This document shows positions 12,251 through 51,272 of a stretch of 64,000 nt of DNA, piece by piece (the first letter of the stretch is position 1; each line of letters starts with the position of its first letter). Origin of the DNA: Opitutales bacterium. Lineage in GTDB: Bacteria > Verrucomicrobiota > Verrucomicrobiia > Opitutales > PNEW01. Made by a program: the position numbers and the translations under genes. Below the pieces are notes generated by a model. That model was not told the origin of the DNA. It worked only from the letters and a program-made list of their open reading frames with translations, and did not search any database. The DNA is taken from NCBI GenBank assembly GCA_965197745.1, contig CBDANS010000006.1, forward strand, positions 585,721 to 649,720, given 5' to 3'.

Positions 12251-12646
12251 TTATTGATCAACTCGAGTATAGAAATTAATAAGGTTACCGTCTGGATCAC
12301 GAAACCAGATTGAACGATTTCCCCATTCCTGGGTCGTTGGTGGTTTAACCCACTCGATATTTAATTTCATTAAGCGTTCATATTCTTTATCAACGTCCTC
12401 TACTAGAAATTGCAGGGAAACACACCTGTTGGTGGCTGGTATTGAAGAGCCTTTAACCCTTTCGTCCTGGGCTTTAAAACTATATAAAGCCAGTATCCCT
12501 CCCTCGGTATGAAACTCTACATAGATTGAACCTTCCCCACTATCCGGTTCAATTTTGAGGACTTCCCTGTAAAATGCCCTTAATCGATCAACATCATGGG
12601 TAGTTATACAACTGTGCGTGAATTTCATAAAATCAGTTCGTGTCAC
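12251..12646 (-). CDS. VOC family protein (glyoxalase/bleomycin-resistance-like)
   Basis: 131 aa. ..THDVDRLRAFYREVLKIEP.. and ..FRDPDGNLINFY.. modules. Confidence 0.75.
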   Translation of the reverse strand: MTRTDFMKFTHSCITTHDVDRLRAFYREVLKIEPDSGEGSIYVEFHTEGGILALYSFKAQDERVKGSSIPATNRCVSLQFLVEDVDKEYERLMKLNIEWVKPPTTQEWGNRSIWFRDPDGNLINFYTRVDQ

Positions 12647-15359
12647 CCATTGATCTTATTAACTGTCTTTCTAAAAGATCACTGAAGTTGCTCTCTAAAA
12701 CTCTGAAACTTTCTGGATTAGTTTTGGTCGATTGAGTGTAGTCCCACATCGTCCAAAAGGGTATTCCAATGGTATAGATTCGATCAGGGTCGATCTGGTC
12801 TGATTCGGGACCAAAAAAGAATTTCAGTTTCTGTCTTCTCTTTTGTTCTTTAAAATACTCCTGTTGTTTTGTAATTTCAACGCCGCTCAAGTTGATAACA
12901 CCTAAACGCGAAGTATAAGCATCGGAATAGGCCATTACATCCATGAGACGCGTCTCCCCCGCGGCCCAAGAGGGCAGGAATTCATTATCATTCACCGAAT
13001 CAAGAACATAGTCTGCTCCTGTCCCCATTTGAATAGCTTTTTTCATTGCGATGTCAAAACCTTCCAAAGAACATAAATTGTCCGATAACTTTGGCGATTG
13101 ACGATATCCCGCTTCCCAGCTCCATCGGCTATTGAAATTGCGCCCGGCCACGCGTTGATTTTTATGCGCGTTGAACAGTTGAAAGTCTTCAGCCCCTACG
13201 GCCCACCCTTGATGTCTCAACAGGGGTAGACCCGATCGATAAAAATCTTTCTCATTTGAAGCCAGCCAATAAATAAGCCGTTTCGGATTGAGTGGATTAT
13301 AATAAAGCAGGCCCAGCCCTCGATCCGTAAAGTTCCAGGACACTTCATCGCTTGACGCAATCTTCCCATTGGTCAGGGAAACAGGGAGGTCGTTGGCAAG
13401 ACGGGCGACAATACTATTCTGGACTGCCGTTCCAATGAGTATCAGGTTATAGCGACTGATATCGCCTTCGGTTACATCCGTGTCCGGTTTCCCCGGCAAC
13501 AGGCTATACTGCATTTGCCGGTCATATTGATCGGTCCAATTTGGATTGGGTGTGGCACGCGCCAGTTGAGCAAGATCCCTTATTTTTTCATTAACTTCAT
13601 CCCCTCCATTCGTGCCCCAGACGACCATAAGCGGCTCTCCATGATAAAGCGCTGTAGCGCCTCCCGGGAAATGCAATCGTTCTTTTGGCAGTTTCGGTGA
13701 ATGGGGATCGACGATCCACTTATTGTTCTTCCGATAGATAAACAGCTTATTGGGTAGTGGTGATTGAACCGTGCCTATTTGCTGCCCTTCAATGACAATC
13801 ATCAGCGGTTTGTTTTGATCAATAGGGGAGGAAGCTATGTTGAGGGTAAGAGCTCCAACGTTATCAAAGTTGAGATAAAGGGTGTTATCATTACCGAGAC
13901 TTAATTTGAAAGAAGGATAACTTCTCTTCGGTCCCCACTCGAGGATACTGGCCCACCACGCTCCATGGGATAGACCATCCATTGCCGTAAAATGAATATT
14001 TCTAACTTGTGATGAACGGGTCTGACGTTTAACCCAATGAAGCGAGCGGATACTGGCTTCTGTATTACCCATAACTGCGTGCCCATCACCGTGTGTCTCG
14101 TCCCAGGTAACTTTTGCTCCCAATTGACTTAGCCGTTGCATGGCATTGCGCGAATTGGACATGGGAACCAGGAAATCATCATCGCTATGCAACAGGTATA
14201 AAGGCACGTTTTTCATATTACCAAGGGGAAGATCTTCATTATAACCGGCCCAAATACGCCCCGATGAGAATTTATCGGGGAAACGGGCAATAAGGCTAAA
14301 CGTACCTCCACCTCCCATGCTATTACCACCAAGATGTATCCTGTTTTCATCTATATTCCAGTTTTTGGTTACATAATCTATGGCCTCCAGCACATCCACT
14401 TCAGATAAACCATTAAAACCAGACCGTGGTCCGCGACCCCAAACTGCTATCTGCAGGGCATCTTCATCGAAGATATTCGGATCGCCAATTTTACTGATGA
14501 GGTAAGACTCTCCGGATCCATGTAAATCTATATAAAGGGGCCACGTTTTATTGGCGTCATAATCGGGAGGGATGTAAATCATCATCGGTTGCAGGGTGCC
14601 ATCAATCTCTGATCGATAAGCTATTTCTCCTTTGCCTCGCATCTTCGACAAATCTGCAGTGTTGTAATGCAATCCTTCCGGGACTTGAACAACGCGCTTC
14701 GAGGCGGGTTTTGTCGTGAATAGCTCGACGGCGAAACCCCAGGCGTGCACGGCCTGATCGGATTTTAAGAGTATCGAGTTCAGTCCTTTGTCTAAAGTTA
14801 TTTCAAAACGATCCTCCCATGGCATCAGACCCCGCCGTTCCTGCCAGAGTGAGTGAACAAGTTCGCCGTTTACCCAGACCCTGACGCCATCGTTCGATCC
14901 AATATGGCAGTAAACAGTCTGCTTTTCATCTGATCTAACGCGGCAAAAAGCGTAGCCCACTTTGTAAGTCGATTTTGGATAATAATTGATCATGTTTACC
15001 TGTCCCGTCCAATTCGTATCAATTAATTGAGGGGATACCGTCGTAGTATTTCCTTTATCGACTTTATAGGATACTTGTTTAACCCGTTTCCAGACTGGTT
15101 TAGTTTCTCCTCCCAGATCAGTCAGGTAGTCATGGTGAAATCCTCCCCGGGTTGCTCCATCGGGAGTTTCCGGTTTCTCCATCATCTCATTGGGGAATGG
15201 TCCAAGAATAACCCAGTCTTTTACTGCCGCACCTTCATCGAGCGTATTGATTGGCACACCCATTGCGACCGCAGATCGAGCGTAGAGGCCGGGCAGCAAT
15301 AAAAATATCAGGGTATACCCGATGCCGAGTGTCTTAAGGTGTTTTATAATGTAATTCAT
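12633..15359 (-). CDS. Large secreted multidomain protein with central alpha/beta-hydrolase (S9/esterase-like) domain
   Basis: Signal peptide. N-terminal beta-sandwich-like region. Hydrolase block with DLHGSGES, GGNSMGGGGT nucleophile elbow, LLHSDDD, GDGHAV. The ~450-aa C-terminal region is unassigned. Confidence 0.6.
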   Translation of the reverse strand: MNYIIKHLKTLGIGYTLIFLLLPGLYARSAVAMGVPINTLDEGAAVKDWVILGPFPNEMMEKPETPDGATRGGFHHDYLTDLGGETKPVWKRVKQVSYKVDKGNTTTVSPQLIDTNWTGQVNMINYYPKSTYKVGYAFCRVRSDEKQTVYCHIGSNDGVRVWVNGELVHSLWQERRGLMPWEDRFEITLDKGLNSILLKSDQAVHAWGFAVELFTTKPASKRVVQVPEGLHYNTADLSKMRGKGEIAYRSEIDGTLQPMMIYIPPDYDANKTWPLYIDLHGSGESYLISKIGDPNIFDEDALQIAVWGRGPRSGFNGLSEVDVLEAIDYVTKNWNIDENRIHLGGNSMGGGGTFSLIARFPDKFSSGRIWAGYNEDLPLGNMKNVPLYLLHSDDDFLVPMSNSRNAMQRLSQLGAKVTWDETHGDGHAVMGNTEASIRSLHWVKRQTRSSQVRNIHFTAMDGLSHGAWWASILEWGPKRSYPSFKLSLGNDNTLYLNFDNVGALTLNIASSPIDQNKPLMIVIEGQQIGTVQSPLPNKLFIYRKNNKWIVDPHSPKLPKERLHFPGGATALYHGEPLMVVWGTNGGDEVNEKIRDLAQLARATPNPNWTDQYDRQMQYSLLPGKPDTDVTEGDISRYNLILIGTAVQNSIVARLANDLPVSLTNGKIASSDEVSWNFTDRGLGLLYYNPLNPKRLIYWLASNEKDFYRSGLPLLRHQGWAVGAEDFQLFNAHKNQRVAGRNFNSRWSWEAGYRQSPKLSDNLCSLEGFDIAMKKAIQMGTGADYVLDSVNDNEFLPSWAAGETRLMDVMAYSDAYTSRLGVINLSGVEITKQQEYFKEQKRRQKLKFFFGPESDQIDPDRIYTIGIPFWTMWDYTQSTKTNPESFRVLESNFSDLLERQLIRSMGDTN

Positions 15360-15369
15360 GGGGGGGATT

Positions 15370-15870
15370 TTATTTTTTAATTAACGCAATTTTTTCACTG
15401 TGTTCTGTGATAAACCAGTCATCAAGGAGATCAAGGTATTTGATCTGTAATTCCGACGGAAGGGCGAAATATCCGGAGACAATAGTTTTTCTGCATATAT
15501 TACACCCACAGTTGCATGACCACACTTCACCATCATGGCAATTGATACAATAATCATAGGTGATTTCTTCATCTATGGTTATATCGCATAAAGCAATTAA
15601 CTGACGATATCCTGCTATAGTTTTCACATAAGTATTAGGATCACAGCTGTGATTAATGTGTCTTTCAGGTGATTGCATGAGGATTACTTTACCACCGGCT
15701 AAATAGTCGCAATGGTATACATGCTCTCCACGTTCAGGCTTTAATGGGTTATCGTCATTAACAATCCTGGAGTCATCAATCTGAAGCACGTAATCACCCG
15801 ATTTAAATTCACATAAGGAGAATACGCCCGAACCGTGAATCTTTGAATTCTTTACGCACACATTCGTCAT
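15370..15870 (-). CDS. SET-domain protein (putative lysine methyltransferase)
   Basis: NHSCDPN and EEITYDY motifs, plus the Cys cluster CINCHDGEVWSCNCGCNIC. Start placed at the internal ATG (MTNVCVKNSKIHGSG) to avoid overlap with the kinase gene. Confidence 0.75.
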   Translation of the reverse strand: MTNVCVKNSKIHGSGVFSLCEFKSGDYVLQIDDSRIVNDDNPLKPERGEHVYHCDYLAGGKVILMQSPERHINHSCDPNTYVKTIAGYRQLIALCDITIDEEITYDYCINCHDGEVWSCNCGCNICRKTIVSGYFALPSELQIKYLDLLDDWFITEHSEKIALIKK

Positions 15871-15877
15871 CGATGTC

Positions 15878-16945
15878 CTAATTATGGGAGTCCAAATCAA
15901 ATACTTTTTTGTGCATTAACTCGTTTATTTCTTTTAAACCGGCACTTGTTTTCAATTGATCGACCTGTCTATTAAGCACACGTGAAAATTTACACATATC
16001 TCTCAGCTGATCCAAATTTGACCAAACAAACAAATCAGCCAATATAGACAGCTCTTCATCGGTGAAAGGATAACGCTTGTGATAAGCCACCAGGAAATGC
16101 TTCTGCTGATCAAGGCTTAGTGTCTTAGCACTGTCTGGCTCGGGTGAACTGATAATTCCAAAACAAACATCTATCAGTCGTTCAGCATACCCCGTTTGAT
16201 CAAAATCAATGATTCCGGTTATTTTATCATTTTCCTCCAATACATGGCATAATCGAAAATCACCATGGATAATAGTTTTCTTGAACCCCACCCCGGCTAT
16301 TGCCTCAAGCTGATTCTCAAGATGTTGAAAGGCATTTGCTAACAGGTTGACCTCGTGAGAACTGAACAAATCATCAAAGGCTGATAGATCACTCTGAATT
16401 TTCGGAAGTGCATTGCGTATCTGTTCTGGAATGGTAAATCGTGAGGTATCGCTGCTTATACTCCTGGAATGACTGTCAAGATATTCTTCTCCAAGGCTAT
16501 GATATTCAGCCATCACCCTCGCAAAATTCTCAACTTGACGTTCAGTATTGCCGGTCACTGGCTTACCCGGCATAGCCGTCATGATATAGGTAACATTGTA
16601 AGGGGTATTATCTAAGAGAGAAAAGTATGCCTCGCCATTCTTAGTATTAAGTATCTCAGGTAGTGGCAGACCTTTATCACGAAGAAATGATGCTACACTG
16701 ACAAAAGCCACGGGATCGGAAATTCCATCGGATGTAAACTTAAGATAAAAATTACCCCGTTGAGTATTAATTTTTAAGCACATTCCATAAGCAGTGTGTA
16801 AGGAATCAAAATGATTCACGATTAAGCCATAGGTTTGATCGAGCTGCTCTGTTACACGCTCTTGCAATTCATCGATTGAACTTATTCCATATACTTTGGA
16901 TAGTTCATTATCGACGTTTTTACCATAGGGAGAAATGATATCCAT
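15878..16945 (-). CDS. APH-fold phosphotransferase (homoserine-kinase-II/aminoglycoside-kinase-like)
   Basis: Catalytic loop IIHGDFRLCHVL and metal-binding GIIDFD. 355 aa. Confidence 0.75.
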   Translation of the reverse strand: MDIISPYGKNVDNELSKVYGISSIDELQERVTEQLDQTYGLIVNHFDSLHTAYGMCLKINTQRGNFYLKFTSDGISDPVAFVSVASFLRDKGLPLPEILNTKNGEAYFSLLDNTPYNVTYIMTAMPGKPVTGNTERQVENFARVMAEYHSLGEEYLDSHSRSISSDTSRFTIPEQIRNALPKIQSDLSAFDDLFSSHEVNLLANAFQHLENQLEAIAGVGFKKTIIHGDFRLCHVLEENDKITGIIDFDQTGYAERLIDVCFGIISSPEPDSAKTLSLDQQKHFLVAYHKRYPFTDEELSILADLFVWSNLDQLRDMCKFSRVLNRQVDQLKTSAGLKEINELMHKKVFDLDSHN

Positions 16946-17001: not shown

Positions 17002-17484
17002 TTATTTTTCCGGATTCAGTTTTTTAGACATGAGGACACACTCCAGTTCCCTGCCCTCCTGCAACCTGTATCTTTCAGACTTTTCTTGCTGGTACCCCGC
17101 TGCTGCATAGAATGAAACCGCATTGAGTGTGGAGTATAGCTTCAAACAATTTAGCGCTGACTTCCTGGCAATCGCTTCTAATTCAGACAATATCAATGAT
17201 CCCGTTCCTCTGCCAGTGTAAGCGGGATGAACATAGACGGCAGTGATCACTCGTTCCTTTAATATAATGCCGCCAAACCCAATTATTTTACCATCCACTT
17301 CCGCGACAAATAAACGCTCCCCCTGCTCCATGGCGCGAATGTAGTTTTCAGCGCGCTTTTCTCCTGACCATGCCTCTATTTCCTCGTCGGCATACCTGGC
17401 ATTACATAATTCACGTATTGATTTAACGTGGACACCGCAGATTGCCCCCACATCTCCCACTTGGGCTTCCCGTATCGTTATCAC
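17002..17484 (-). CDS. GNAT N-acetyltransferase
   Basis: YTGRGTGSLIL acetyl-CoA loop. 160 aa. Confidence 0.8.
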   Translation of the reverse strand: MITIREAQVGDVGAICGVHVKSIRELCNARYADEEIEAWSGEKRAENYIRAMEQGERLFVAEVDGKIIGFGGIILKERVITAVYVHPAYTGRGTGSLILSELEAIARKSALNCLKLYSTLNAVSFYAAAGYQQEKSERYRLQEGRELECVLMSKKLNPEK

Positions 17485-18221
17485 TTTTTATTCTTCATTA
17501 CCGCTATAAATAGACCTCTTCCTTTCATTAACCCGTTTTTCAAAAACCTGGCCTGAAACCCGGCATCCTCGAGTATTTTCAAAAATCGATCTTTATCAAA
17601 GAGGGCTAAGTCATGTTGATCACGTAAATACTGAACACCTCGTTTCGTAGCGATCAGAAAATGAAAATCTATAATGGCTAGATTTCCTCTCTTTCTACTG
17701 ACATTCATCCTGCTAATCTTACAACCATTGCCACTCTGGGTACCCCCATTGATTTGACCGTTATTGTATGTTTCTGGTGAAAAGAAAGGTTCAATGATGA
17801 CGACACCTCCGGGGACCAGATGTTTGGCCATACAGGAAATGCTTTTCTTAAGATTTGTATACGTCTTTGCGTAGGCAATTGCACTGAAGAGGCAGGTAAT
17901 AACATCAAATTGTTGTTTAAGATCGAAATTGATCATGTCGCCGCGATGAAATTTAACCTTCGGACATTTCTTTCGCGCCTCTTTAAGCATATAATGGTTA
18001 AAGTCTAATCCGACGATCTCATACTGGTTGCTTAAATACTTGATGTGTCCACCAGTACCACAAGCAACATCGAGGAGTTTATTACCCGGTGATTTCTTAT
18101 ATTTTTTAATGAGCTCATGAATATGCTGTGACTCTAAACAATAGTCTTTCCACTGATACCAAACATCATAATACGGAGCCAGCTCAGCCCACATTTTTTC
18201 TGTTTTATGCTTATTGCTCAT
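17481..18221 (-). CDS. Class I SAM methyltransferase, TylM1/DesVI-like
   Basis: YYDVWYQ..., LLDVACGTGGH, RGDMINFDL, CLFSAIAY, PGGVVIIEPF. Colinear with the aminosugar N,N-dimethyltransferase family (LLDVACGTG / DMR.F / FSSIG / VEPW). The substrate is unknown. Confidence 0.65.
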   Translation of the reverse strand: MSNKHKTEKMWAELAPYYDVWYQWKDYCLESQHIHELIKKYKKSPGNKLLDVACGTGGHIKYLSNQYEIVGLDFNHYMLKEARKKCPKVKFHRGDMINFDLKQQFDVITCLFSAIAYAKTYTNLKKSISCMAKHLVPGGVVIIEPFFSPETYNNGQINGGTQSGNGCKISRMNVSRKRGNLAIIDFHFLIATKRGVQYLRDQHDLALFDKDRFLKILEDAGFQARFLKNGLMKGRGLFIAVMKNKK

Positions 18222-18319: not shown

Positions 18320-18985
18320 CTACCACTTTATTGGCAGGTCTAATATTTCAGTCACATGACTGACTTTCCAGTCATAAACTGGCTTCTCTTCATCGGGCCA
18401 TGGTTGATTTCCCGATACCCATACCGTTGACATTCCGACATTATGAGCGCCCATGATATCAGCCCGCGGGTTGTCGCCAATAAACAGGCATTCACCTGCG
18501 GTTGCGTCAAGTGACTCTATTATCGAGGTAAATATATCCGGATCGGGCTTATGCTTACCAAAAGCCCCGGATATAAGGTAGCAGTCAACAATATCCGCGA
18601 TTCCAGAATTCAAGAGCTTTGCTTTTTGACTTAACTCAGAACCATTTGTGACCACGCCTAAACGCATCCCCTTAGCGCTGAGTGTGTTCAGCAGCGTTGT
18701 CACCCCTTCAAATAAGACGGGGGATTTCCAGGCATTACGATTAAAATCATGGAGCAGGTCATCGGATAATAGCTCAAGATTCAGTCGGTTTACCAGCTCC
18801 TCATAGAGATCAGGCCTTGGCGTGAGACCGTGAGCGTCTAACTCCACAAATACATCGATGTAACGCGATGGATCAATACTACTGTTATTTAATATTCGGT
18901 GATGTTGATCTTTAGCGATGTATCTTATTGAAGTTTCGCGGTCCAGGAGCGTTTCATCCAAATCAAATAGGGCTGCCTTTATCAT
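18320..18985 (-). CDS. HAD-IA hydrolase
   Basis: DLDETLL, VVTNG, GKHKPDPDIF, GDNPRADIMGA. Confidence 0.8.
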   Translation of the reverse strand: MIKAALFDLDETLLDRETSIRYIAKDQHHRILNNSSIDPSRYIDVFVELDAHGLTPRPDLYEELVNRLNLELLSDDLLHDFNRNAWKSPVLFEGVTTLLNTLSAKGMRLGVVTNGSELSQKAKLLNSGIADIVDCYLISGAFGKHKPDPDIFTSIIESLDATAGECLFIGDNPRADIMGAHNVGMSTVWVSGNQPWPDEEKPVYDWKVSHVTEILDLPIKW

Positions 18986-19001: not shown

Positions 19002-19725
19002 TTATATCATTTCTTTATTTCTTCTATAGGCCCCATCGATAAAAAACGGGACACAATTGCTGACATTTACCTGCCCTGCCAGTTCTATATCTCGACCCTC
19101 ATTTTTAGCCAATTTTTCTTTTCCCGATCCGCAATTGTGCAGCTTTACCGCGAGTGAGGTCCTGCAATTTTCAAATAACGCTTTTGCGCCCTCGGCCTCA
19201 GGTGAAAGCGTGCCTCCAAAATGTGTAATGATCGCACCTGCTCCTGCCAAGTCCTCAAAGCAGGGTCGCAGCGAATCGTCGTCCCATCGCTCTCCGGCGG
19301 GGACCACTCCAATTTTCCAGCCAAGCTTCATCGCTGATTCCGCAACGACCCGACTATTGCGAAAGCATCCCGCAATAACCGGGGTAGAACCTGCCGCGAG
19401 GGTAATCGTAGAACCGTTTGGCGAAGGAAAGAACGAGACGTGTGATATCCGGCAAATTGACGAGCGACTCCGGAGATAATGTGAACCCATTACGATTTTT
19501 CCTGTCGGCGACTTCCGCCTGCATTTGCTCAGCAAAGGCATAAACCCTTTCATCCCTCCAGCGATAGGGGTAGACGACCGCGCCCTTGCTTACCGCGATA
19601 TCAAGACTGGTGGAGAACGAAAAAATATCGACGATCACTAGAACATCGCAATCGGGAGCGAGAACCGTAACCCCCTGTTCCCCCCATTCACAACGTATGT
19701 CGTATTCGGATTGATCAAATAACAT
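19002..19725 (-). pseudogene. ComB-like 2-phosphosulfolactate phosphatase family gene with a frameshift
   Basis: N-terminal part in the frame of ORF 19354..19725 (..VLVIVDIFSFSTS..FTLSPESL..ITRLVL). Continuation in the frame of ORF 19002..19553 (PSPNGSTITLAAG..VVPAGERW..FEDLAGAGAII). The frame switch is at ~19425-19435. Confidence 0.6.
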
Positions 19726-19744: not shown

Positions 19745-20422
19745 TTATTGGATGATTTTATTAAATATCACAGGTAGAAACGTATCCCAGTTATGACCAT
19801 CGGGACAATAATCAATTGTATCTAAATTCTTATAGGAAGACAAAGTATCGAGCGCGAGTGCTTTAGCTCCATCCCAAAAATTAAGATAAGACTCGTATCC
19901 ACACAGGCCACTTTTTTGAGCGTAGGGTTCATCTAATATTATTTTCATATTCTTCTCTAACCATATTTCTCCACGTACCTTACCGAGCCAATCAAAATGA
20001 TTTTTAATATTATCAGGCCATAAGTAGACTAATAATACTGAAATGTTCTCAAAAATTCGGTCTATTCGTAAAAGGTGTGATTTTATATTTTCAACAGCCT
20101 CATTAAAGGTGAAATAGGTTGTTGCCATATTATTGTAAAAGTATCCGTCGATTAAATACACTTTTTGATCCGATCTGGTTAAATTCACCAATGCTTCCCA
20201 TCTTTCGATAAAATCAAAAACTGGAGGGATTTCTCTATAATCCGGTGGTTCTAATAAATGATTAACATCATTAGCTAAGAATACTTCACTATCGATTCCC
20301 CGATCAGAGAGCATTTGTTGAAGTGACTTAACCGAAGTGGTCTTCCCGGATCCGTTTATTCCATCAATAATAACAATTCGATAATTCGGGGTCTGCTTCA
20401 TTATAGATTTTTTGGAGAGCAA
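19745..20422 (-). CDS. P-loop nucleoside/nucleotide kinase-like protein
   Basis: Walker A GINGSGKTT. 225 aa. Confidence 0.6.
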   Translation of the reverse strand: MLSKKSIMKQTPNYRIVIIDGINGSGKTTSVKSLQQMLSDRGIDSEVFLANDVNHLLEPPDYREIPPVFDFIERWEALVNLTRSDQKVYLIDGYFYNNMATTYFTFNEAVENIKSHLLRIDRIFENISVLLVYLWPDNIKNHFDWLGKVRGEIWLEKNMKIILDEPYAQKSGLCGYESYLNFWDGAKALALDTLSSYKNLDTIDYCPDGHNWDTFLPVIFNKIIQ

Positions 20423-20521
20423 GAGGTTTTGATAAAATAAAATATGTTACCCGATCCTGTTTGCTTCAAGCTTCAGATATCTGCTTTCCGAAGAGTTAGT
20501 CTGAAAGTGAGCTGGGAGAGC

Positions 20522-21553: not shown

Positions 21554-21627
21554 ACCGCTAATTCAGTTATCAATCGATGTATTGACAAGCTTAGATCACC
21601 GAGCGAGCGGCGTGACCCTTTAGCTTC

Positions 21628-43274: not shown

Positions 43275-43300
43275 AGGCCTGACCCTTTATGCTCTGTCCT

Positions 43301-44176
43301 TCAAACAGCGGTGAGCACCGTATTTAATTGTTTTGTGAGATAGGGAGACACCTTCCCCACTTGACTCACCGATTTCAGCAAAGGGAACGTACTTCCTCCC
43401 CAGTCTCCGTTACGGTCAAACACTTGTCTCCCCATGACAACCCCTGATTCATCGATAAAGCCTTTAAGCCGCGCAAGCCCTTCCTTAATTACTTTCTCAG
43501 GCAGGGTTTTTCCCCTTCGCTTGGACCACTCAACAAGATAATATAAACCCCGCAATATATCGTACTCGAAAAAGCGCGGAAAGAACGGTTTCAGCCATTC
43601 CTTGTTGATGACCCTTCCCTCATTCCTGGAGCATACCAGACGATGTTCAATCAGGTAGCGCGCGCCTTCCTCCAGGAATTTCGCTTCGGCATCGGTGTAG
43701 GCGCGATTTGTATTGAAGAGAATGGCTTCCATTGGAGGCAGTGTAGATACAATCGAGCTCTTTCGCGAATTCCCGTAGGCTGAAGGGGTACAATTCAACC
43801 CTCCATCCGGAAGCTGGTGTTTTAGAAACCATTCCCGCATCCAGGGAAGCTCACCATCGACATCACAGCCACAGGCCGAAAGCATCATGTAAAAAACCCC
43901 CAATTCACAGTGACAACAGTCCATCTTAGTCTTATCGGCTTTGCTCTTCGGTGCATCATCATCTGTAATCACGAACTTTGGCCAGGCCCCCTCTTTAAGC
44001 ATCGCTAAAGCTTTCTTAGCAACCGGTTCAGGGATTTGCTCGGTTTCCCCCATTTCGTAAAGAGTTACCATGTGCCACCACGGCCCTACCCATTTCCTTC
44101 TACTCCGGTTGTCCGGCAATGAAAACGTATCCGTTGCCGTGAGTAATTCCATTGAATGCTCGATCGTGTTTGTCAT
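43301..44176 (-). CDS. Hypothetical protein (possible alpha/alpha-toroid, prenyltransferase-like repeats)
   Basis: 291-aa ORF. Only weak QLPDGGLN-type motifs are present. Confidence 0.4.
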   Translation of the reverse strand: MTNTIEHSMELLTATDTFSLPDNRSRRKWVGPWWHMVTLYEMGETEQIPEPVAKKALAMLKEGAWPKFVITDDDAPKSKADKTKMDCCHCELGVFYMMLSACGCDVDGELPWMREWFLKHQLPDGGLNCTPSAYGNSRKSSIVSTLPPMEAILFNTNRAYTDAEAKFLEEGARYLIEHRLVCSRNEGRVINKEWLKPFFPRFFEYDILRGLYYLVEWSKRRGKTLPEKVIKEGLARLKGFIDESGVVMGRQVFDRNGDWGGSTFPLLKSVSQVGKVSPYLTKQLNTVLTAV

Positions 44177-44257: not shown

Positions 44258-45359
44258 TCACTGTCTTTTTCGACCAATGGATTTCATGAATTCCATGCAC
44301 TCAAAGTTCTGAAAGTCTCTCATCACATTTCTGAACTTTGGTTTCCAATAGGTTTCAGGCGCTCCATAGGATTGGTCCCAGACAGGGACAAAGAGTAGAA
44401 AGCATAGCATTAGTCTGTAGTCATCCATTAAATTATCAAGCGAGTATGCGTCGGTTCTACTCGAATCCAGGAAAGAGTAATATCTTTTGAGCGAGGCAAC
44501 GGTGTCTGGATGGTTAACGGGTGGGAAAAACGAAAGCAGATAACCTAAATCAAATGTGGGAAAGTTCGCCGACACTTCCTGGAAGTCTACGAGCATGGCT
44601 ATAGTGTTATCGAGCCCTCTTGGAAAGAGGAACTGTCCAATATAGCAATCCCCCTGTGAAAGCGTGATATTCTCCTTATCAGATATTCTCTCTGCCAGGT
44701 AATGCTTCCACAGCGGGGGAAGGAGACTCAAAGATTCTTCGAGTATCTCAATATCCGTACTGGAGTAATGGTCTCCAGCCTGGGACTTGAAAATCTGATA
44801 CTCTTTTTTTCTCTTTGTTATGTGTCTCTGGTATGAAGGTTCGCCACTATACTCCCACCGCATGGGAAATGATGCGTACGAAGAGCCAATACTTGAAGAT
44901 TCCCACCAGTAGGACTGAAATTCGGCCAGTGCCTTCAGGATACTGTCCCAGGCTCGCGGTTCGACAGGGTGCCTCCCCCTTGATATTGAGCGCATAGTCT
45001 ACGGCTGCTTGATGTGTATCTGAAACATCCTGGAGCAAGAGCGCGGTAATCCCCGTCTCCTGATCATATTTTGCGAAGTAGCAGGTAGGGACCATTTCCA
45101 GAATAGTGGCAGGTTTACTGACAACGGAGTAAAATTGAAATTCAAATGAACCATCATGCTCTTTGTTTCTCTTAAAAACCAGTTTCTCAGGAGCATGGGT
45201 GTCGCTCTTGTTCCTGTAGTGAACGGTGATAAAATAAACTTCGGAATTAAAAGCATCGTTTCGCACACTATCAACAGAATCAATTGCGCCCATTTGTAGC
45301 GCTTCTTCTATAGCGGAAGCCATATCTGAAGGGTCAAGATCTGCTTGTGTCAGATTCAT
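44258..45359 (-). pseudogene. APH-fold kinase-like gene (atypical SQGD loop) with a homopolymer frameshift
   Basis: N-lobe in ORF 44847..45359 (..LLLQDVSDTHQAAVDYALNIKG). C-lobe in ORF 44258..44995 (RHPVEPRAWDSILKALAEFQ..LSQGDCYIGQFLF..LVDFQEV). The switch is in the G5 run (plus-strand CCCCC at 44975-44979); G4 restores the frame. Confidence 0.7.
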
Positions 45360-45410: not shown

Positions 45411-46157
45411 TTATTCGGTGATCTCAATCCAGTTGTATATAATACCACTCCCATATCCCAGTTTCCTTGCTAAATATTCTGAAGCAGCATCCTCAGTATC
45501 CCAGTGAGGCTCAATTCCTTTTCCCAGGTAATATAAAATTATACGAGCACCAAGGGCAGTTCCAATGCCACGATTTTGGAAATCTTGAATTGTGTCTATT
45601 TGAAATTGGATCGCAGTCTTCGAATTTATTGCGGTGGCAACACCTCCTACGAGTCGATTCTGGTGAAGCGCGCAAAAACCAATGCCTTTTTCAAGGAATT
45701 CTCCATAAAATGTAAGGTTTGGTGAAACCTCCTTACCTATTCTTTCTTTTTCATCCTTTTCTATTTTTTTGATTTCTACTCCTTCAGGTAATTCTTCAAT
45801 GACCTTTCTTAAATTTTCCTCATCTAATTTCCGATGATCAAATGTTTTTCTACTGCGAACAATTTAGAGCCCCTTGTAAACAACTTTGACTTTTTTTTCC
45901 CAGGATGAATTGCCCATAAAAATGTCGTCCTTTTGAGCTCCTGAAATGATATCAAGTGCGGCATCAGATTCTGAATTTCCACCCATTATATTAAATGGAC
46001 CAATCTTCAATCGAGCAACAGAAGGGTTTGTGTCGATGTCGACATAAGCTTTTCCCTGGAATCCCTGTAATACGGATTCTACAAACGATTTGTAAGGGAT
46101 GTCTTCAGCAAATAAGTTTCTGAGGTACCCAAGACTCTTTCTATTTATTTCTTTCAT
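45411..46157 (-). pseudogene. Two-domain GNAT acetyltransferase interrupted by an in-frame TAA
   Basis: ORF 45864..46157 ends ..VVYKGL*. The same frame continues IVRSRKTFDHRKLDEENL...QNRGIGTALGARIILYYLGKGIEPHWDTEDAASEYLARKLGY to the stop at 45411-45413, with no start codon of its own. The TAA is at 45864-45866. Confidence 0.7.
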
Positions 46158-46280
46158 TAATCATTGGGGAGGGTTTAAAGTGAGCAATAAAAAATAGAGT
46201 CAAAACTGTTCGGTCGCTGTCTGCGCCCCTTCAGGGCGCGATTTTCATTTTTCTTTTTCCAGGGGTTATCACCCCTGGCT

Positions 46281-46304
46281 AAAAACCTTCACCCCTTTGG
46301 GGTG
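46281..46304 (-). terminator. Likely rho-independent terminator downstream of the AlkD-like gene (first of three tandem GC hairpins)
   Basis: The minus strand reads CACCCC-AAA-GGGGTG followed by AAGGTTTTT. Further hairpins lie at 46259-46278 (CCAGGGG/CCCCTGG) and 46223-46239 (GCGCCC/GGGCGC). Confidence 0.5.
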
Positions 46305-46509
46305 GATATAGCTATTCAAAAAATTCTGATTTTATACCCCCACTTACTGGTTACTGATCACTATACTATTCAATCGACTATCTTCATTTGGCAATCGATA
46401 TCACCTCATCGGTGCTATGATAAAAGAAATGCCCATTCGTAACGCATTTATTGTTTCTCCCCTCCGGGGCCAATCAAATAAATTGCTCACTCCTCAGGCA
46501 TTGAGGTCT

Positions 46510-47187
46510 TTAATAATTTTTCTTACCGGTTATCAGCTTCCTCTTTACTTCGCGTTTTACCCGCGCGGAAGTCACCGATTCGTTGTCAGCGAGGAATTGT
46601 TTAACGGCCTTCCGATCCCACGAAACAAGCATACGTAGGGCCCAGCTGATGGCCTTCTGGACCATTACGCTTTTATCTGAAACTAGTATCTGACAGATCA
46701 TTAAAGTACGAGCGCTGTCCCCGTTCCCACCCCTTGACTTGGTGTTGAGGGGGATGGTTGCGACAACCGCAGCTCTCCTCCACCACTGATCTTTAGATCG
46801 GCTCCAGCATCGAATGTTTCCATCCGACAGCTGACCATTTTGCCAGGCCTGTCCCACCAGGGTGCAGCAGAAAAAATCGACCCACCCCCAGTTATCGATA
46901 CCGGCCCCAAGGGTTTCAATTCGTTTGATAGTCAGCGATTCACGGGCTTCGCGATGACCGGCGATTAACTCGTAGGCGACGTTCCTGCACACTGCGAGCT
47001 TGAGCTTCAACAGCGCCAAGCCAAGCTTACATATAAATTCACCGCTTTCGTCCTTGAGCTTCGACTTATATATTCGCACGACCCTATGACGGTCTTTTGT
47101 GTATAGCCGTGACCTACGGCTGAATTGACGAAGCGTTTCTCGAATCTCTTTCGCGGTTTTATTAATTTTTAAGGAATCGGTGGTCAC
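46510..47187 (-). CDS. DNA alkylation repair (AlkD-like HEAT-repeat) protein
   Basis: ..WWRRAAVVATIPLN.. and ..DKSVMVQKAISWALR.. patterns. 225 aa. Confidence 0.6.
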   Translation of the reverse strand: MTTDSLKINKTAKEIRETLRQFSRRSRLYTKDRHRVVRIYKSKLKDESGEFICKLGLALLKLKLAVCRNVAYELIAGHREARESLTIKRIETLGAGIDNWGWVDFFCCTLVGQAWQNGQLSDGNIRCWSRSKDQWWRRAAVVATIPLNTKSRGGNGDSARTLMICQILVSDKSVMVQKAISWALRMLVSWDRKAVKQFLADNESVTSARVKREVKRKLITGKKNY

Positions 47188-47253: not shown

Positions 47254-48054
47254 CTATTTGTGCGTCTCATCAAGGCACGGCTTTCCCCATAAAACTTGCG
47301 TTTTTACCTGGTATCTTAACAAACCATCTTCAACAAAGGGTAGAAGAATTTTCTCCATTTTATGGTCAAATTCTTTTTCTTTGATTTTTCCCATGCCTTC
47401 TACTGAAAGAGACGCTCTCGAGTGTTCCGCATTTATGAATTGGTCCAGGGATTGATTGAAATTGTAAGGTCCCATTGTGCGATTCCCTGTAAGCTTAAAG
47501 CAACCCGAGTTCTCTAAAGCTTTTAGCGCATCAAATGGCACATAATCCTTATATGTTGAATACTCAGCAATCAGGTCATTCCGGAATTTTCCCCATGGGA
47601 CATTGCAGGGGCCATCTCCATCCATAATCACCAGGGAACCCGTTGGATGAAGCGCATCTTTGAATTTTTGAAAAACCAGATTCAAGTCCATCCAATGCAA
47701 ACTGGCTCCGATGACAATCAGGCCATAGGGTGGATTGAGCAGGGCTTCTTCAATTTTAGCGTGGATCCAGCAAATTTTAGGGTTGTCGCCACTTGGCAAT
47801 GTTCTTCCCAGTCGGATCATTTCTTCCGAAAAATCAACGGCATCGATACGATCAGCTTTTCCTGTTAATAGTCGAGCAATTTTACCTGGACCACTTCCCG
47901 CATCGAGTACCGATTTCGCATGCTCAGGGATTTTCTCTATTAAAAAATCCATTATCTCTTGATCGTAAGGGGGTCGAAACCCATACCGTTCCACAACACT
48001 TTTAGATTTGAAGCGAATTGCGTGCTCATGATCTACCGTGTTTACAATAGACAT
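47254..48054 (-). CDS. Class I SAM-dependent methyltransferase
   Basis: Motif I VLDAGSGPGKI and IDAVDFSEEMI. Confidence 0.8.
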   Translation of the reverse strand: MSIVNTVDHEHAIRFKSKSVVERYGFRPPYDQEIMDFLIEKIPEHAKSVLDAGSGPGKIARLLTGKADRIDAVDFSEEMIRLGRTLPSGDNPKICWIHAKIEEALLNPPYGLIVIGASLHWMDLNLVFQKFKDALHPTGSLVIMDGDGPCNVPWGKFRNDLIAEYSTYKDYVPFDALKALENSGCFKLTGNRTMGPYNFNQSLDQFINAEHSRASLSVEGMGKIKEKEFDHKMEKILLPFVEDGLLRYQVKTQVLWGKPCLDETHK

Positions 48055-48169: not shown

Positions 48170-48961
48170 TTATATGGCCGTCGCTTTGAGACTGAAAGTA
48201 CAGGGGTACAATTCAATTTTATCAAATTGGACATCATAAGGGGTATAACCATTATAAAGATACTGCGGGAATTCATGGAGGAACTCTATTCTCATGCCAG
48301 CTTCGCAAAATGCGGTAATAAGCTCTCCCAAAGTCCAGTGCCATTCGTAGGAAGGGGTCGGTATTTTAAAATCCGGATCAGTGTAATCACCCATGTTTTC
48401 GTACTGCCACACCTTCTTGCGGAAATAACTTCCCTGAATAGTACTGGCGCTTGATGATCCCGCTTCATCAAGCATGACGCTTCTGAACGGATGCCCGTCA
48501 TAAATATAGAAAAATCCGTTGTCATTTAATAATTGCCGCGCGGTCTGAGCATACTGCTCAAGGTCCGGAATCCAACAGAGCACCCCGGTAGATGAAAAAA
48601 CAATATCATATTTTTTATTCACTATATTCTTTACATCCACAATATCCGCCTCGATAAACTCCGCCCCAATGCCCATTTGTTCCGCGATCAAGCGTGCGTA
48701 TTTCAATGATTCGGACGAAATATCTATACCGGTCACCTCAGCCCCGAGCAGTGCCCAGGACAGGGTATCGGTTCCGATATGACAGAGCAGATGCACCAGT
48801 GATTTGCCCCTGACATCACCGACCTCTTTTTGTAAAAGGTCATTCAATAATGGTTTACCGGCTATCAAGGTGTCCGTATCATAATTCTTATAATGGATTT
48901 CTGCCAGGCCATCCCATGCCTTTTTATTTGCCTGGGTCATATGCTTCATTGATTGCTCCAC
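48170..48961 (-). CDS. Class I SAM-dependent methyltransferase
   Basis: LVHLLCHIGTDTL.., VTGIDISSESL, YDIVFSSTGVLCW. Confidence 0.7.
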   Translation of the reverse strand: MEQSMKHMTQANKKAWDGLAEIHYKNYDTDTLIAGKPLLNDLLQKEVGDVRGKSLVHLLCHIGTDTLSWALLGAEVTGIDISSESLKYARLIAEQMGIGAEFIEADIVDVKNIVNKKYDIVFSSTGVLCWIPDLEQYAQTARQLLNDNGFFYIYDGHPFRSVMLDEAGSSSASTIQGSYFRKKVWQYENMGDYTDPDFKIPTPSYEWHWTLGELITAFCEAGMRIEFLHEFPQYLYNGYTPYDVQFDKIELYPCTFSLKATAI

Positions 48962-49000: not shown

Positions 49001-49369
49001 TCAGGCAGGTTTCCTATAGGCCCGACTGGATATTTGAATAGAATTTTTACCGGGACCTTTCGCGTTTGAAAAAATGTACCCTTGCACCTGATGAACAGCT
49101 CCAAATTTAAGTCCGTTTTTTGCGCATTTATCGCGAAATTTCTCCACATCTTTTATATCGAAGACCAGCTTTACACAGGCTTGTCCATCCTTTATTCCTT
49201 TGCCCGCGGGGTGGATCATCAAACTCGCCCCTCCATGAGCAGGCAGTAGTTCCAGCATGCTGGTACCTTCTTCGACCAGGGATTTAAAATCGAAGTGCTT
49301 TACATAAAAAGCCGCCATCTTTTCGACATTTTTGGCATAAATCATAATCTTATTGATGGCTGGCTTCAT
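49001..49369 (-). CDS. VOC family protein
   Basis: 122 aa. IMIYAKNVEKMAAFYVKHFDF is a typical first beta-alpha module. Confidence 0.7.
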   Translation of the reverse strand: MKPAINKIMIYAKNVEKMAAFYVKHFDFKSLVEEGTSMLELLPAHGGASLMIHPAGKGIKDGQACVKLVFDIKDVEKFRDKCAKNGLKFGAVHQVQGYIFSNAKGPGKNSIQISSRAYRKPA

Positions 49370-49812
49370 TTTTTTCCCTTTAGTCGCTTAAATTCTTCAT
49401 TGAGTGTCTTATTCTGGAACGGAGTAAAAGCCAGCTCCAGTTTCATCCCATCCGGATCCTGGAACCATACTCCGTAGTATCCTGGGCTATAGTTCATTTC
49501 GCACGGAGCATCCAGAATTTCGGCGCCCATTTTCTTGAGAATATCGTATAGCCTGTCCACGTCTTCCCGTCTTTCGGCGTTCCAGGCCATGTGGCTGAAC
49601 CCCGGAGATTCCCTATCGTACTTTTTCCCGTGTCCCGCTTTTCTTGTCCGCACCAAAATCAAGTCGCCTATCCCGATCTTTTTTCGGTAGAGAATCGATG
49701 CCTTCATTCGGTGATGCTTTTCGTATCCAAGAAAATTGCATATGGGGTCATAGAATATTTCTGACTCATCCAGATTCCCGACACGAAGCTCAATATGGTT
49801 TATGAGTGTCAT
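49366..49812 (-). CDS. VOC family protein
   Basis: INHIELRVGNLDESEIFY.. and FQDPDGMKLEL. 4-nt overlap with the next VOC gene. Confidence 0.75.
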   Translation of the reverse strand: MTLINHIELRVGNLDESEIFYDPICNFLGYEKHHRMKASILYRKKIGIGDLILVRTRKAGHGKKYDRESPGFSHMAWNAERREDVDRLYDILKKMGAEILDAPCEMNYSPGYYGVWFQDPDGMKLELAFTPFQNKTLNEEFKRLKGKK

Positions 49813-49889: not shown

Positions 49890-50408
49890 CTATTTATTCA
49901 GCAACTCGGAGATAATGGCATCAACAACCTTCCCCAACTTGCTGAGCATGGCAAACTCCTTATCGACAACCGAGACAAATGACTTTGGCGTCATCGGGCG
50001 GAAGCATTTCACCGGCTCGAGGGCGTAGCGGGTATTGATTTCGTAACCCTTCTCCTCAAGTATATCGCCACACCGGCGAAGGAAAGCCTGACTGAAATCC
50101 TTCTGCCCGAAACCGGCACGTGACTTTCCCGCCTCGATGTGAAAGACGAAGGGAACCTCGCCTTTCTCATGATAGGATTTCGCCATCCAGGATTCGAAAT
50201 GCAGCCCATTTCCTTTCTCGTTAAACCAATTTGACCTGTAGAGTTGAAATCCAGCCCCCTGGGGAGATGTATCATTGGGATACAACCCCGCGTTGATTAA
50301 CCAGGTATTCTGGATAGCCTTGCGTTTTGAAAGTTTCCTTTCAGCTTCCTTGTATCCATCCCCATAGAACCGGTAAATATCCGCGGTCTCTTCCTTAACC
50401 TTTTTCAT
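49890..50408 (-). CDS. Hypothetical protein (172 aa)
   Basis: Clean ORF in the array orientation. No motif recognised. Confidence 0.5.
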   Translation of the reverse strand: MKKVKEETADIYRFYGDGYKEAERKLSKRKAIQNTWLINAGLYPNDTSPQGAGFQLYRSNWFNEKGNGLHFESWMAKSYHEKGEVPFVFHIEAGKSRAGFGQKDFSQAFLRRCGDILEEKGYEINTRYALEPVKCFRPMTPKSFVSVVDKEFAMLSKLGKVVDAIISELLNK

Positions 50409-50573
50409 AGCTTCCTTTCAAAAGAATGGCTGGCAGCGTTTACGCCTCTGCCGATTGGGCATCCTATTCTTGTATGCGGCAGGATCAAGAGAATTTATAA
50501 ACGCGCATGCTGAAACCTGTTGGTGTGAACCTGGCAGCGCCATTCTACTGTAATATGTCAACAAGCTCTCTAT

Positions 50574-51272
50574 TTATCCTTCCCCAAAGATTTCCAGCAA
50601 CTCAGCTAATTCTTTGATTACCGATACTCTCTCGTCAACTTTGTGATCTTCCGCTATTCGATTAACCCAGATTGCCTCAAGTCCAACTTCCATTGCTCCT
50701 TCTATATCACGTTCATAACTGTCTCCTATCATGAGAGCGATCCGGTTACGATGCAGATCATTGAGGATCGCCTCAAAGTAATGTTGATTCGGCTTTTCAA
50801 ACCCGATCTTTCCCGAGGTATACACCGCTTCAAAATAGCTCAAGATTCCTAACTGGTTTAGAATATCTGAAAGCTCCGGTATATGATTGGAAGCTATGAC
50901 ATGAGAATACCCGCATTGCGATAGTTTTTTCAGAATGTCTTCAGCTTATGGTACCAACTGATATCCATGATTAAGTAGTATTTCCTCTCGCAAACCCTTG
51001 GCAAGTTGGTGCGCTACCGCTTCTGAAACGCCATTCGCTATCATCGCGGACGCGATTTTATAATTTAGAAATTCCCAGTAATTCTTACCGTTGAAAAGAT
51101 CGACGTGCGGTACTTCAGGTGTGTGCCAGGGAAAACCGTAGTCCAGTTCCTGCCGAATGCTATCAATGTCGATGTCTGAGTAGCCTGAACGGTTGAGAAG
51201 CGATCGGGTAGCTCTCGACCATAACCACGGAGCGTCTGCCAGGGTTCCATCAAAATCCCATAAGATATGCAT
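50574..51272 (-). pseudogene. HAD-IA hydrolase interrupted by an in-frame TAA
   Basis: Motif I WDFDGTL is in ORF 50946..51272 (ends ..GYQLVP*). The same frame continues AEDILKKLSQCGYSHVIASNH...GKIGFEKPN...GDSYERDIEGA (motifs II-IV). The TAA is at 50946-50948. Confidence 0.75.

Follow-up and report, generated by a model that had tools for sequence, protein, structure and literature searches.

What kind of genetic element is a long row of small enzyme genes that looks like an integron cassette array in its content and contains no recognisable integron parts? The question is raised by a 64,000-nucleotide stretch of contig CBDANS010000006.1 (GenBank assembly GCA_965197745.1, positions 585,721 to 649,720 of the forward strand) from an Opitutales bacterium. 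We refer to this whole stretch as the window; all coordinates are window positions, and labels from L003 to L014 denote loci from other contigs and genomes with which it was compared. From 12251 to about 54150 the window contains a run of about 44 genes other than insertion sequences (IS), all in one orientation and arranged head-to-tail over about 42 kb. The run is interrupted solely by IS elements and by one TPR gene on the opposite strand. We give about an even chance to the reading that this array is a vertically inherited, plastic super-operon of stand-alone small-molecule-modifying enzymes of the resistance or detoxification type, in which the assignment of function is the weak step.

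A preliminary description based on the sequence had reported a one-strand array between 12251 and 51272, and the strand count bears this out. In a greedy non-overlapping gene set drawn from a mechanical list of open reading frames (ORFs), 49 ORFs lie on the minus strand and 6 on the plus strand; the latter comprise a DDE transposase, the 471-aa TPR gene with a small upstream ORF, and otherwise small, probably spurious frames. That description needs correction in that seven members are pseudogenes and that the run continues on the same strand beyond 51272 with a PhyH gene, a DLH-type hydrolase gene and a gene for a 342-aa secreted protein, followed by FG-GAP/Ig genes to 57377. The spacing is as tight as had been claimed, with 37 of 45 gaps between successive minus-strand ORFs at or below 100 nt, overlaps in 10 of 45 and a median of 36 nt, but the full range is –46 to +352 nt rather than about –17 to +100 nt. 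Most of the eight gaps above 100 nt contain pseudogene remnants, seen on three-frame reading as out-of-frame pieces of broken genes, and the largest (46158–46509) is a hairpin cluster. The GC content of individual array genes varies from 0.35 to 0.51. For the main array as a whole it is 0.43–0.46, compared to 0.46–0.48 in the flanks, and in relatives the array equals its flanks; the idea of an AT-rich foreign island is thus unsupported for the main array.

Families were assigned from Pfam hits precomputed on the source contigs, from our own Pfam and NCBIfam scans, and from three-frame reading of doubtful stretches. This hidden Markov model annotation, which the preliminary description had proposed, recovered every family that it had called by motif. 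There are nine GNATs and an AAC(3), five APH-fold kinases, five P-loop kinases, five class I methyltransferases, a SET protein and three VOC proteins, together with two HAD proteins, two nucleotidyltransferase-fold proteins (an NTase and GrpB), and HIT, YciI/YCII, ComB, alcohol dehydrogenase (ADH), epimerase, AlkD-like, PhyH and DLH proteins. The likeness to the palette of integron cassettes and resistomes that had been noted is upheld by this content. Members of the same family are only 24–41% identical to one another, which rules out recent tandem duplication as the origin of the array. The annotated ORFs include no transporter, helix-turn-helix (HTH) regulator, integrase or scaffold domain of polyketide or non-ribosomal peptide synthetase type by Pfam and NCBIfam, and Pfam annotation of all ORFs revealed no core machinery for terpenes or for ribosomally synthesized and post-translationally modified peptides. 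This agrees with the earlier view that the row is neither a biosynthetic nor a recognisable catabolic operon. By hydropathy, signal-peptide-like N-termini are confined to three or four array proteins, and none of the proteins looks like a multi-pass membrane protein. Rfam and tRNA scans of the window were empty, so it has no tRNA-anchored island signature.

Some members are recognisably related to resistance enzymes. The APH-fold kinase APH296 (295 aa) aligns over its full length to APH(2'')-IIIa (PDB 3tdw, 7e-32), and then to APH(2'')-Id and to capreomycin, viomycin and macrolide kinases. A small profile built for NTase305, the nucleotidyltransferase-fold protein of 305 aa, gives weak matches in the PDB to LinB (0.002) and ANT (0.018), and two P-loop kinases match Bacillus-type "hypothetical kinase" models of NCBIfam (PRK08233 and PRK06761). 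NCBIfam scores remain well below the curated cutoffs: 163 bits compared to 270 for AAC_3, 107 compared to 625 for APH(2'')-IIIa, 84 compared to 390 for Cph and 34–36 compared to 205 for APH_3p. As judged from these scores, the array enzymes are therefore remote superfamily relatives of the curated resistance families and not members of them. Single-sequence AlphaFold2 models of a 286-aa protein and of the NTase, with mean confidence (pLDDT) of 37 and 40, are too low in quality to be used.

Conservation and turnover among strains and relatives

The window is 99.7–99.97% identical to two metagenome contigs in ENA, one of 71.7 kb and one of 3.1 Mb that is chromosome-scale and carries the array at about 1.53–1.58 Mb. 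Two strains at 99.97% DNA identity have the same array content except for IS insertions. The sister strain represented by the 3.1-Mb contig differs from the window only in two places. At 39042–39050, in the IS-rich part of the array, it has an additional IS1595-family transposase and a gene for a 483-aa N6_N4 methyltransferase/Mrr-like protein (L003:4090-7245). Upstream of 53458, inside the gene for the 342-aa protein, it has a different segment (L005:1-4596) that encodes a 382-aa tyrosine recombinase, an HTH_17 excisionase-like protein and a dCache protein. The recombinase gene (L005:3381-4529) is divergently oriented just upstream of the array, within this strain-specific segment.

When the species representatives of GTDB were searched with an alignment of the conserved APH, three loci were retrieved, all in metagenome-assembled genomes (MAGs) of Opitutales. 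A scan of metagenomes with the APH296 alignment gave no matches, and its repetition with an alignment of the 908-aa hydrolase gave two short contigs only. Orthologs of this hydrolase occur at 67–83% identity on long contigs, and in four relative genomes (L006/L010, L007, L008) its gene again closes a comparable row of genes that all point one way. The relatives and the window have in common, at 63–91% identity, GNAT_3, methyltransferase 254, APH296, NTase305, P-loop218, ComB, HAD, APH355 and SET, and further upstream in L010 also APH319, AAA_33, PRK, the epimerase, the ADH and two GNATs. For 11 ortholog pairs between the window and L010, the ratio of nonsynonymous to synonymous substitution rates (dN/dS) is 0.10–0.24 at dS values of 0.5–1.4. 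Unusual GC contents of single genes are also kept between orthologs, for example 0.35 in a P-loop kinase and 0.51 in the ADH. The low dN/dS and the conserved per-gene GC indicate that the array is old, vertically inherited and under selection. On this comparison of orthologs, the array predates the split of several related species by vertical inheritance, and its shared members are under purifying selection. The 91% identity of the ADH does not reflect recent transfer, as the ADH and the PRK gene have the same dS (0.48); its high identity therefore comes from strong constraint.

The strain-variable pile of cassettes implied by the preliminary description is thus not what is found between near-identical strains, where the array is constant apart from IS elements, nor does it fit the core shared by relatives. 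Between species, content and order do vary, with private genes, deletions and a block order particular to each genome. Conservation in relatives, which that description had named as a point against its view, is borne out in part, for a core at about 70–80% protein identity. Gene-for-gene conservation is not seen, and the AAC(3) has no ortholog there. The DUF2268-like gene, methyltransferase 237 and GNAT160 are present in the window alone, and L007 has a different GNAT (GNAT148) in the GNAT160 slot. Relatives carry GNAT172 with a phosphoribosyltransferase, and a 255-aa gene, which the window does not have. In L008 the P-loop kinase has been lost and ComB lacks its 5' end; L010 has lost APH355 and SET, of which the last SET codons remain. 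The blocks are also ordered differently: L010 has the ADH and the epimerase before APH319-AAA_33-PRK, compared to the window, where the ADH lies between the NTase and the P-loop kinase. Throughout, the array enzyme genes of all genomes are co-oriented, and the only items on the opposite strand are the TPR gene of the window and IS transposases. From these alignments, the array gains genes by insertions of single-gene size and loses them by ordinary deletions, of which remnants stay behind; blocks transpose within it, members become pseudogenes and IS elements insert.

From the distribution of their homologs, new members come from outside the lineage. The best matches of the AAC(3) are 58% identical and belong to other phyla, the named ones including Anaerolineae, Treponema and Paenibacillus. 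The methyltransferase at 47254 has 75% identical orthologs outside any long array (L012), and its remoter homologs are named Poribacteria, Chloroflexi and Gemmatimonadota. At the one locus of another sponge-symbiont phylum that was checked, a probable Poribacteria homolog of this methyltransferase, no array of the same type was seen.

Pieces of such arrays are also found between IS3-family elements. In the 3.1-Mb genome, about 330 kb from the array, a mini-array (L014:6365-15625) forms a 6.7-kb block between two such elements; it splits an SBP_bac_5 gene, and with a GC content of 0.38 compared to 0.47–0.49 in its flanks it does have the character of an AT-rich foreign island. It contains an APH, a broken methyltransferase, another methyltransferase, a HIT protein, a further APH and a protein with a class-C-type beta-lactamase fold; the broken methyltransferase and the HIT protein are each 79% identical to a window gene. 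In the MAG contig CBDCNV010000001.1, APH296 and a truncated NTase lie between IS3-family copies in two places (L009:8488-12948 and L011:8488-10892), in a composite-transposon-like arrangement. The IS3-bounded mini-array and the IS3-flanked APH296/NTase fragment together imply, from gene order, that IS3-type elements move pieces of such arrays. The IS copies in the main array are recent insertions that damage its members.

Seven members of the array are pseudogenes. The ComB-like 2-phosphosulfolactate phosphatase gene (19002–19725) is frameshifted into two ORFs, with PF04029 matching the C-terminal one, and is intact (236 aa) in L006 and L007. An Acetyltransf_3-type GNAT (25222–25854) is degraded at its 5' end, with an N-terminal remnant lying out of frame in a 267-nt gap, compared to an intact protein of 182 aa in relatives. 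In a frameshifted P-loop kinase (37899–38430) the Walker A motif (GIPASGKT) and the C-terminal part are in different frames. An APH-fold kinase has been cut by IS3 to a C-terminal remnant (39040–39748) that has no Pfam match and is recognised by GD...N and DFD motifs in its frame-1 translation, and another (44258–45359) is frameshifted into two ORFs, with PF01636 on the C-terminal one. A GNAT_acetyltran-type GNAT (45411–46157) has a single in-frame stop, with PF12746 on its N-terminal part and a QNRGIG motif after the stop in a continuous frame. Finally, a HAD hydrolase (50574–51272) is in fragments, with an N-terminal HAD_2 match at 50946–51272 and a C-terminal match at 50574–50843. Identical gene splits, among them those of ComB and of the APH at 44258, are found in two independent assemblies of 36x and 7x coverage; they are therefore pseudogenes and not assembly noise.

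Function and competing explanations

In the super-operon reading, the roughly 44 stand-alone, cytoplasmic enzymes are drawn from superfamilies that inactivate antibiotics and other small toxic molecules, namely N-acetyltransferases, O-phosphotransferases of the APH and P-loop types, nucleotidyltransferases, methyltransferases, VOC proteins, hydrolases and redox enzymes. Tight spacing, overlaps and the near-absence of terminator-like elements suggest that the row is probably transcribed by read-through into a small number of very long messages. There is no enrichment of promoter-like or terminator-like sites, and one terminator-like element lies within the array (at 46.3 kb) and one right after its last gene. 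A correctly oriented newcomer would then be expressed without a promoter of its own, which would explain why surviving insertions share one orientation. In a chemically rich habitat the row as a whole would provide broad and constitutive chemical defence or detoxification, and its palette suggests a battery with a wide range of small toxic molecules as targets. The host is probably associated with marine sponges, as judged from a like-named contig with a methyltransferase 89% identical to a "Candidatus Poribacteria" protein and from the Sel1, TPR, FG-GAP and SET genes in the window.

Several points weigh against this reading. All scores against curated models are far below cutoff, and the substrates need not be antibiotics. 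The SET protein, the 908-aa secreted hydrolase, a secreted peptidase-like protein, the AlkD-like protein and four proteins without assigned family (genes at 27915, 43301, 49890 and 53071) fit a detoxification battery poorly. Co-transcription is deduced from spacing alone. Co-directional runs of about 10 kb also adjoin the array in relatives, and the one-strand property may in part be a general habit of these genomes. The local enrichment of families was judged solely against about 60 kb of flanks and against other loci. With seven of about 44 members reduced to pseudogenes and three IS elements inserted, the array is partly decaying in this lineage.

These signs of decay are what makes a neutral accretion zone the main rival. 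According to this explanation the array is a gene graveyard, a permissive stretch where acquired small genes pile up and decay without a joint function, and their orientation is a by-product of strand bias. The seven pseudogenes, the three IS elements and the truncated APH would all be expected there, as would deletions that leave remnants, a per-gene GC spread of 0.35–0.51 and the co-directional runs next to the array in relatives. However, 11 shared genes have kept dN/dS at 0.10–0.24 after dS of 0.5–1.4, so selection maintains them. Random accretion would also not be expected to favour a few enzyme superfamilies and to bring in no regulators, transporters or structural genes, and the independent insertions or relocations, at least eight in number, all have the same orientation. 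We therefore consider this rival unlikely, though it deserves to be taken seriously, and the remaining rivals are less likely. If kinases, acetyltransferases and the SET protein instead acted on macromolecules of a host or of neighbours, as effectors of intracellular bacteria do, the SET-domain gene within the array, the Sel1, TPR and FG-GAP genes in and beside it, the fold that APH enzymes share with protein kinases and the probable host-associated lifestyle would find an explanation. Such an arsenal is improbable given that just three or four array proteins have signal-peptide-like N-termini, that the array has no secretion-system genes and that the nearest characterised relatives of its best-matching members are small-molecule kinases and acetyltransferases. 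A slightly poorer case can be made that the enzymes carry out tailoring steps or catabolic reactions in one biosynthetic or degradative route. Tight packing, translational coupling and the conserved sub-blocks APH319-AAA_33-PRK and P-loop-ComB-HAD are compatible with one pathway, but there is no scaffold enzyme, transporter or regulator, the ten acetyltransferases and ten kinases are deeply divergent and redundant for one route, and members are gained, lost and reordered between species while the rest stays.

Descent from a degenerate or atypical integron, either a sedentary chromosomal integron or a cluster of attC sites without integrase (CALIN), is very improbable. The small, promoterless-looking, co-oriented genes, their cassette-like palette and the divergent tyrosine recombinase just upstream of the array in the sister strain do point that way, and content and order vary among the window, L007, L008 and L010 as in integrons, a resemblance that is insufficient for membership. 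The preliminary description had seen neither attC-like hairpins nor an integrase, and our tests concur. There are no RYYYAAC...GTTRRRY core pairs at distances of 42–137 nt on either strand. No repeat family is found inside the array, although its flanks are full of dispersed repeats, and no k-mer is shared across 46 spacers beyond the A-rich leaders. Of the 29 spacers with a length of 40 nt or more, only two are more stably folded than shuffled sequences (z < –3), namely the hairpin cluster at 46.2–46.5 kb and the 74-nt leader of the ADH; neither has attC features, and the median spacer is 36 nt. The annotated window ORFs have no match to Phage_integrase or IntI, and the recombinase of the sister strain, confined to its strain-specific segment, has Xer-type matches far below cutoff and none to integron-integrase models. 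Integron membership is rejected at the sensitivity of these core-pair, repeat, k-mer, folding and integrase tests. An anti-phage defence island is just as improbable. NTase, P-loop and kinase folds do occur in defence systems, and close by, the sister strain has IS elements and a restriction-modification-like insertion, but ten array proteins searched with PADLOC gave two marginal matches only (E > 3e-4), and Pfam identifies no nucleases, helicases or sensor domains.

How new members enter the row is hinted at by the borders of some insertions. Three window-specific insertions are bordered by imperfect direct repeats of 8–12 nt. The ADH unit takes along about 50 nt of its 5' flank, which is conserved, and the only two intergenic AAGCTT sites of the window, ATCT[A/G]AAGCTTG, stand on either side of it (20423–20521 and 21554–21627); in L010, where the ADH site is empty, the sequence is TCAAAGCTTA. 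The leader of the ADH, 74 nt long, has an unusually strong fold (z –3.5), with pairing that spans the GTG start. The direct repeats and the AAGCTT borders are hints of capture and provide a lead only, as three cases in AT-rich sequence are not evidence. A bolder proposal, which as a joint claim we regard as doubtful at best, is that the row works as a functional analogue of an integron that is independent of a recombinase. It would be an expression rail in a host-associated Opitutales clade, onto which promoterless foreign enzyme genes would be captured one-way by short-homology or illegitimate recombination, with IS3-flanked sub-arrays as shuttles, expressed by read-through, and kept, moved or discarded gene by gene.

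Under the super-operon reading, the locus would imply that a large one-orientation set of resistance-type enzymes can form and persist over speciation time without integron machinery. The array holds dozens of distant and uncharacterised members of the wider AAC, APH, ANT, CPT-like, VOC and methyltransferase groups of resistance enzymes, together with several proteins without a family, and is thus a source of new enzymes from a habitat (presumably sponges) known for bioactive natural products. The IS3-flanked mini-array shows a way in which parts of such a reservoir could be mobilised. Should its function be something other than detoxification, the array would still be a clean natural experiment on gene-by-gene turnover in a giant operon-like unit.

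Individual members and flanks

The members are described here in order of increasing coordinate, that is, from the 3' end of the array, and all lie on the minus strand unless stated otherwise. The last gene (12251–12646) encodes a VOC protein of the glyoxalase/bleomycin-resistance fold (PF00903, 1e-16), is restricted to the window lineage and is absent after the 908-aa gene in relatives. It is preceded by the conserved terminal gene (12633–15359) for the 908-aa secreted alpha/beta-hydrolase, which is S9/Abhydrolase_2-like by Pfam and has a signal-peptide-like N-terminus. The SET-domain methyltransferase (15370–15900; PF00856, 2e-12) is present in L007 and L008, with a 3' remnant only in L010, and the 355-aa kinase APH355 (15878–16945; PF01636, 8e-17) has orthologs of 77–78% identity in L007 and L008. 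Two window-specific genes follow: GNAT160 (17002–17484; 160 aa, PF13673/PF00583), with no ortholog in L007, L008 and L010 at this position, and the class I methyltransferase 237 (17481–18221; PF13649, 1e-16), with none in relatives. The core is represented by the 221-aa HAD phosphatase (18320–18985; PF13419, 2e-26; orthologs 77–79%, dN/dS 0.22) and, beyond the ComB pseudogene, by the 218-aa kinase P-loop218 (19745–20422), which has a Walker A motif, a match to PRK06761 (1e-20) below cutoff and orthologs of 77–78%. The Zn-dependent ADH (20522–21553; ADH_N/ADH_zinc_N, dN/dS 0.10) is the counterpart of L010:2823-3854, at another array position in L010. NTase305 (21628–22545), also a core member, has a GS...DxE motif and a faint Polbeta match. 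Between it and APH296 lies a window-specific insertion that is absent at this place in L008 and L010, a gene for a secreted DUF2268/DUF5700-like putative Zn-peptidase (22558–23562; weak Pfam match, HExxH).

The core kinase APH296 (23590–24477; orthologs 77–79%) has APH(2'')-IIIa as its nearest solved relative, as described above, and is preceded by the 254-aa class I methyltransferase (24474–25238; PF08241), with orthologs of 75–77% in L007 and L008 and absent in L010. Beyond the degraded Acetyltransf_3 gene come a YCII-family protein (25855–26163; PF03795), GNATs of 156 aa (26187–26657; ortholog 66% at a different position in L010) and 131 aa (26694–27089), a class I methyltransferase (27091–27873) and the 286-aa protein (27915–28775), which has no Pfam, NCBIfam, PADLOC or PDB match. 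They are followed by an Acetyltransf_3-type GNAT (28818–29411), the HIT-family hydrolase (29371–29847; PF01230, weak) whose 79% identical paralog is in the mini-array, and the lineage-specific AAC(3)-family N-acetyltransferase (29882–30706; PF02522). A shikimate-kinase-like P-loop kinase (30714–31283; PF01202, NCBIfam matches below cutoff) is next to a GNAT (31330–31881), GrpB (31836–32387; PF04229), another GNAT (32396–32851) and the NAD-dependent epimerase/dehydratase (32855–33859; PF01370; ortholog 74% in L010). The GNATs and methyltransferases listed here without a model number were assigned by Pfam.

The TPR gene (34297–35712; 471 aa, GC 0.57, weak TPR matches) and its small upstream ORF occupy 34004–35712 on the plus strand and break the array at a rearrangement breakpoint, where in L010 PRK is directly followed by another GNAT. 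The sub-block upstream of it consists of the PRK/uridine-kinase-like P-loop kinase (35723–36295; PRK08233, 2e-49; ortholog 82%), the AAA_33 P-loop kinase (36301–36789; PF13671; ortholog 79%) and the 319-aa kinase APH319 (36873–37832; PF01636; ortholog 70%). After the frameshifted P-loop kinase and a 140-aa GNAT (38519–38953; Pfam), the IS-rich part contains the APH remnant, the IS3-family element with three ORFs (39749–41005; HTH_Tnp_1, HTH_21 and rve_3 by Pfam) and, on the plus strand, an IS element with a DDE_Tnp_1 transposase (41671–43305; PF01609) and 51-nt terminal inverted repeats. A 283–291-aa protein without assigned family (43301–44176) has no matches. The APH and GNAT pseudogenes at 44258 and 45411 are separated by the hairpin-rich 352-nt spacer (46158–46509; terminator-like site 46304–46290, folding z-scores –3.5 and –4.4) from the AlkD-like protein of the DNA_alkylation repair fold (46510–47187; PF08713). 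Class I methyltransferases of 266 aa (47254–48054), with its 79% paralog in the mini-array, and 259 aa (48170–48961), both assigned by Pfam, precede two overlapping VOC/glyoxalase-fold genes (49001–49369 and 49366–49812; PF00903) and a 172-aa protein without family or matches (49890–50408). Upstream of the HAD fragments are the PhyH-family dioxygenase (51311–52048; PF05721), the DLH/S9-type alpha/beta hydrolase (52126–53028; Pfam) and the 342-aa secreted protein without assigned family (53071–54156), inside whose gene, at 53458, the sister strain diverges. In the spacers between 12 and 54 kb most starts have no Shine–Dalgarno-like sequence and the leaders are A-rich (ATAAAA, AAAATG), which suggests initiation independent of Shine–Dalgarno pairing in this host.

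Further upstream on the same strand, one or more non-enzyme genes for FG-GAP/Ig-like repeat proteins (54181–57377; PF14312 and PF19081) contain 174-nt tandem repeats; their split differs by assembly, with 484 + 595 aa here and 640 + 345 aa in the 71.7-kb contig. Three tandem Sel1-repeat genes (57614–59571, plus strand) are found a short way upstream of the array, and in relatives genes of this type lie next to the array end as well. Clusters of dispersed repeats at 1736–2300, 5650–6150, 9900–10720, 11936–12250 and 62814–63200 bracket the outside gene blocks, and none lies inside 12251–57377. They contain a GC hairpin (GGACGCG-N4-CGCGTCC) by CCTCCAT, runs of 8-nt period (GTGAATGC-like) and TTGTCATTGCGAGG. 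The cluster directly 3' of the last array gene (11936–12250; repeat families D2, D4, D6 and D13) has a GC hairpin with a T-run, and its copy at 12147–12128 is terminator-like. Direct repeats of 200 nt that are 95% identical (10233–10432 and 11936–12135) flank a plus-strand module of a TetR regulator and a Zn-ribbon protein (10908–11771), which seems to have been inserted between repeat elements. An internally deleted remnant (6104–6216) beside another repeat cluster is 80–87% identical to the VOC gene at 12251–12646, suggesting a past duplication or rearrangement of the array end. The left flank (847–9741) consists mostly of minus-strand genes for small enzymes with a GC content of 0.50–0.54, among them a Cof-type and three HAD phosphatases, an alpha/beta hydrolase, a class II fructose-bisphosphate aldolase and a Zn-ADH. 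The repeat clusters cut it into blocks, and instead of belonging to the array it may be a sugar-phosphate module.

Likeness to known systems

The preliminary description could not assign the array to a described system, and neither the integron-oriented tests, PADLOC and Rfam nor a full-text literature search, which within the library covered found no description of such arrays, identified one. In its working the array resembles an integron array or a resistance island, and it fails the defining tests of both. Since no new mechanism has been demonstrated, it is best classed as an accessory-gene island and not as a categorically new element. The combination of a core biosynthetic enzyme with a transporter or regulator that marks biosynthetic clusters was not found in the window annotation.

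Like integron cassette arrays, including sedentary ones and CALINs, the array consists of small, mostly promoterless, co-oriented genes, is enriched in acetyltransferases, kinases, VOC proteins and drug-modifying folds, and has variable content and reshuffled order. Unlike them it has no IntI, attI or attC, its spacers are too short for such sites and many of its genes overlap. It also has a large vertically inherited core under purifying selection, and its deletions are imprecise and leave remnants. AbaR- and SGI-type islands are IS-bounded clusters of resistance genes, in the manner of composite transposons. Here two bounding IS copies and a split host gene are found for the mini-array, and IS elements occur in the main array too. 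However, the IS elements of the main array are internal and repeat clusters form its flanks, its genes are distantly homologous to the clinical families and do not belong to them, and its roughly 42 kb are conserved across species.

The rAID/AID clusters of Bacteroidales are recombinase-associated arrays of orphan immunity genes against protein toxins, with a conserved recombinase and repeats. They share with the array the long one-strand rows of small protective genes from other bacteria; in contrast to them, the array encodes enzymes and has no conserved recombinase or repeats. In environmental intrinsic resistomes, such as the GNATs, APHs and P-loop kinases of Paenibacillus and Bacillus, the genes are, as far as is known, scattered around the chromosome. 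The array draws on the same superfamilies, and several of its members match the Bacillus-type "hypothetical kinase" models, but here the genes are concentrated in a single row.

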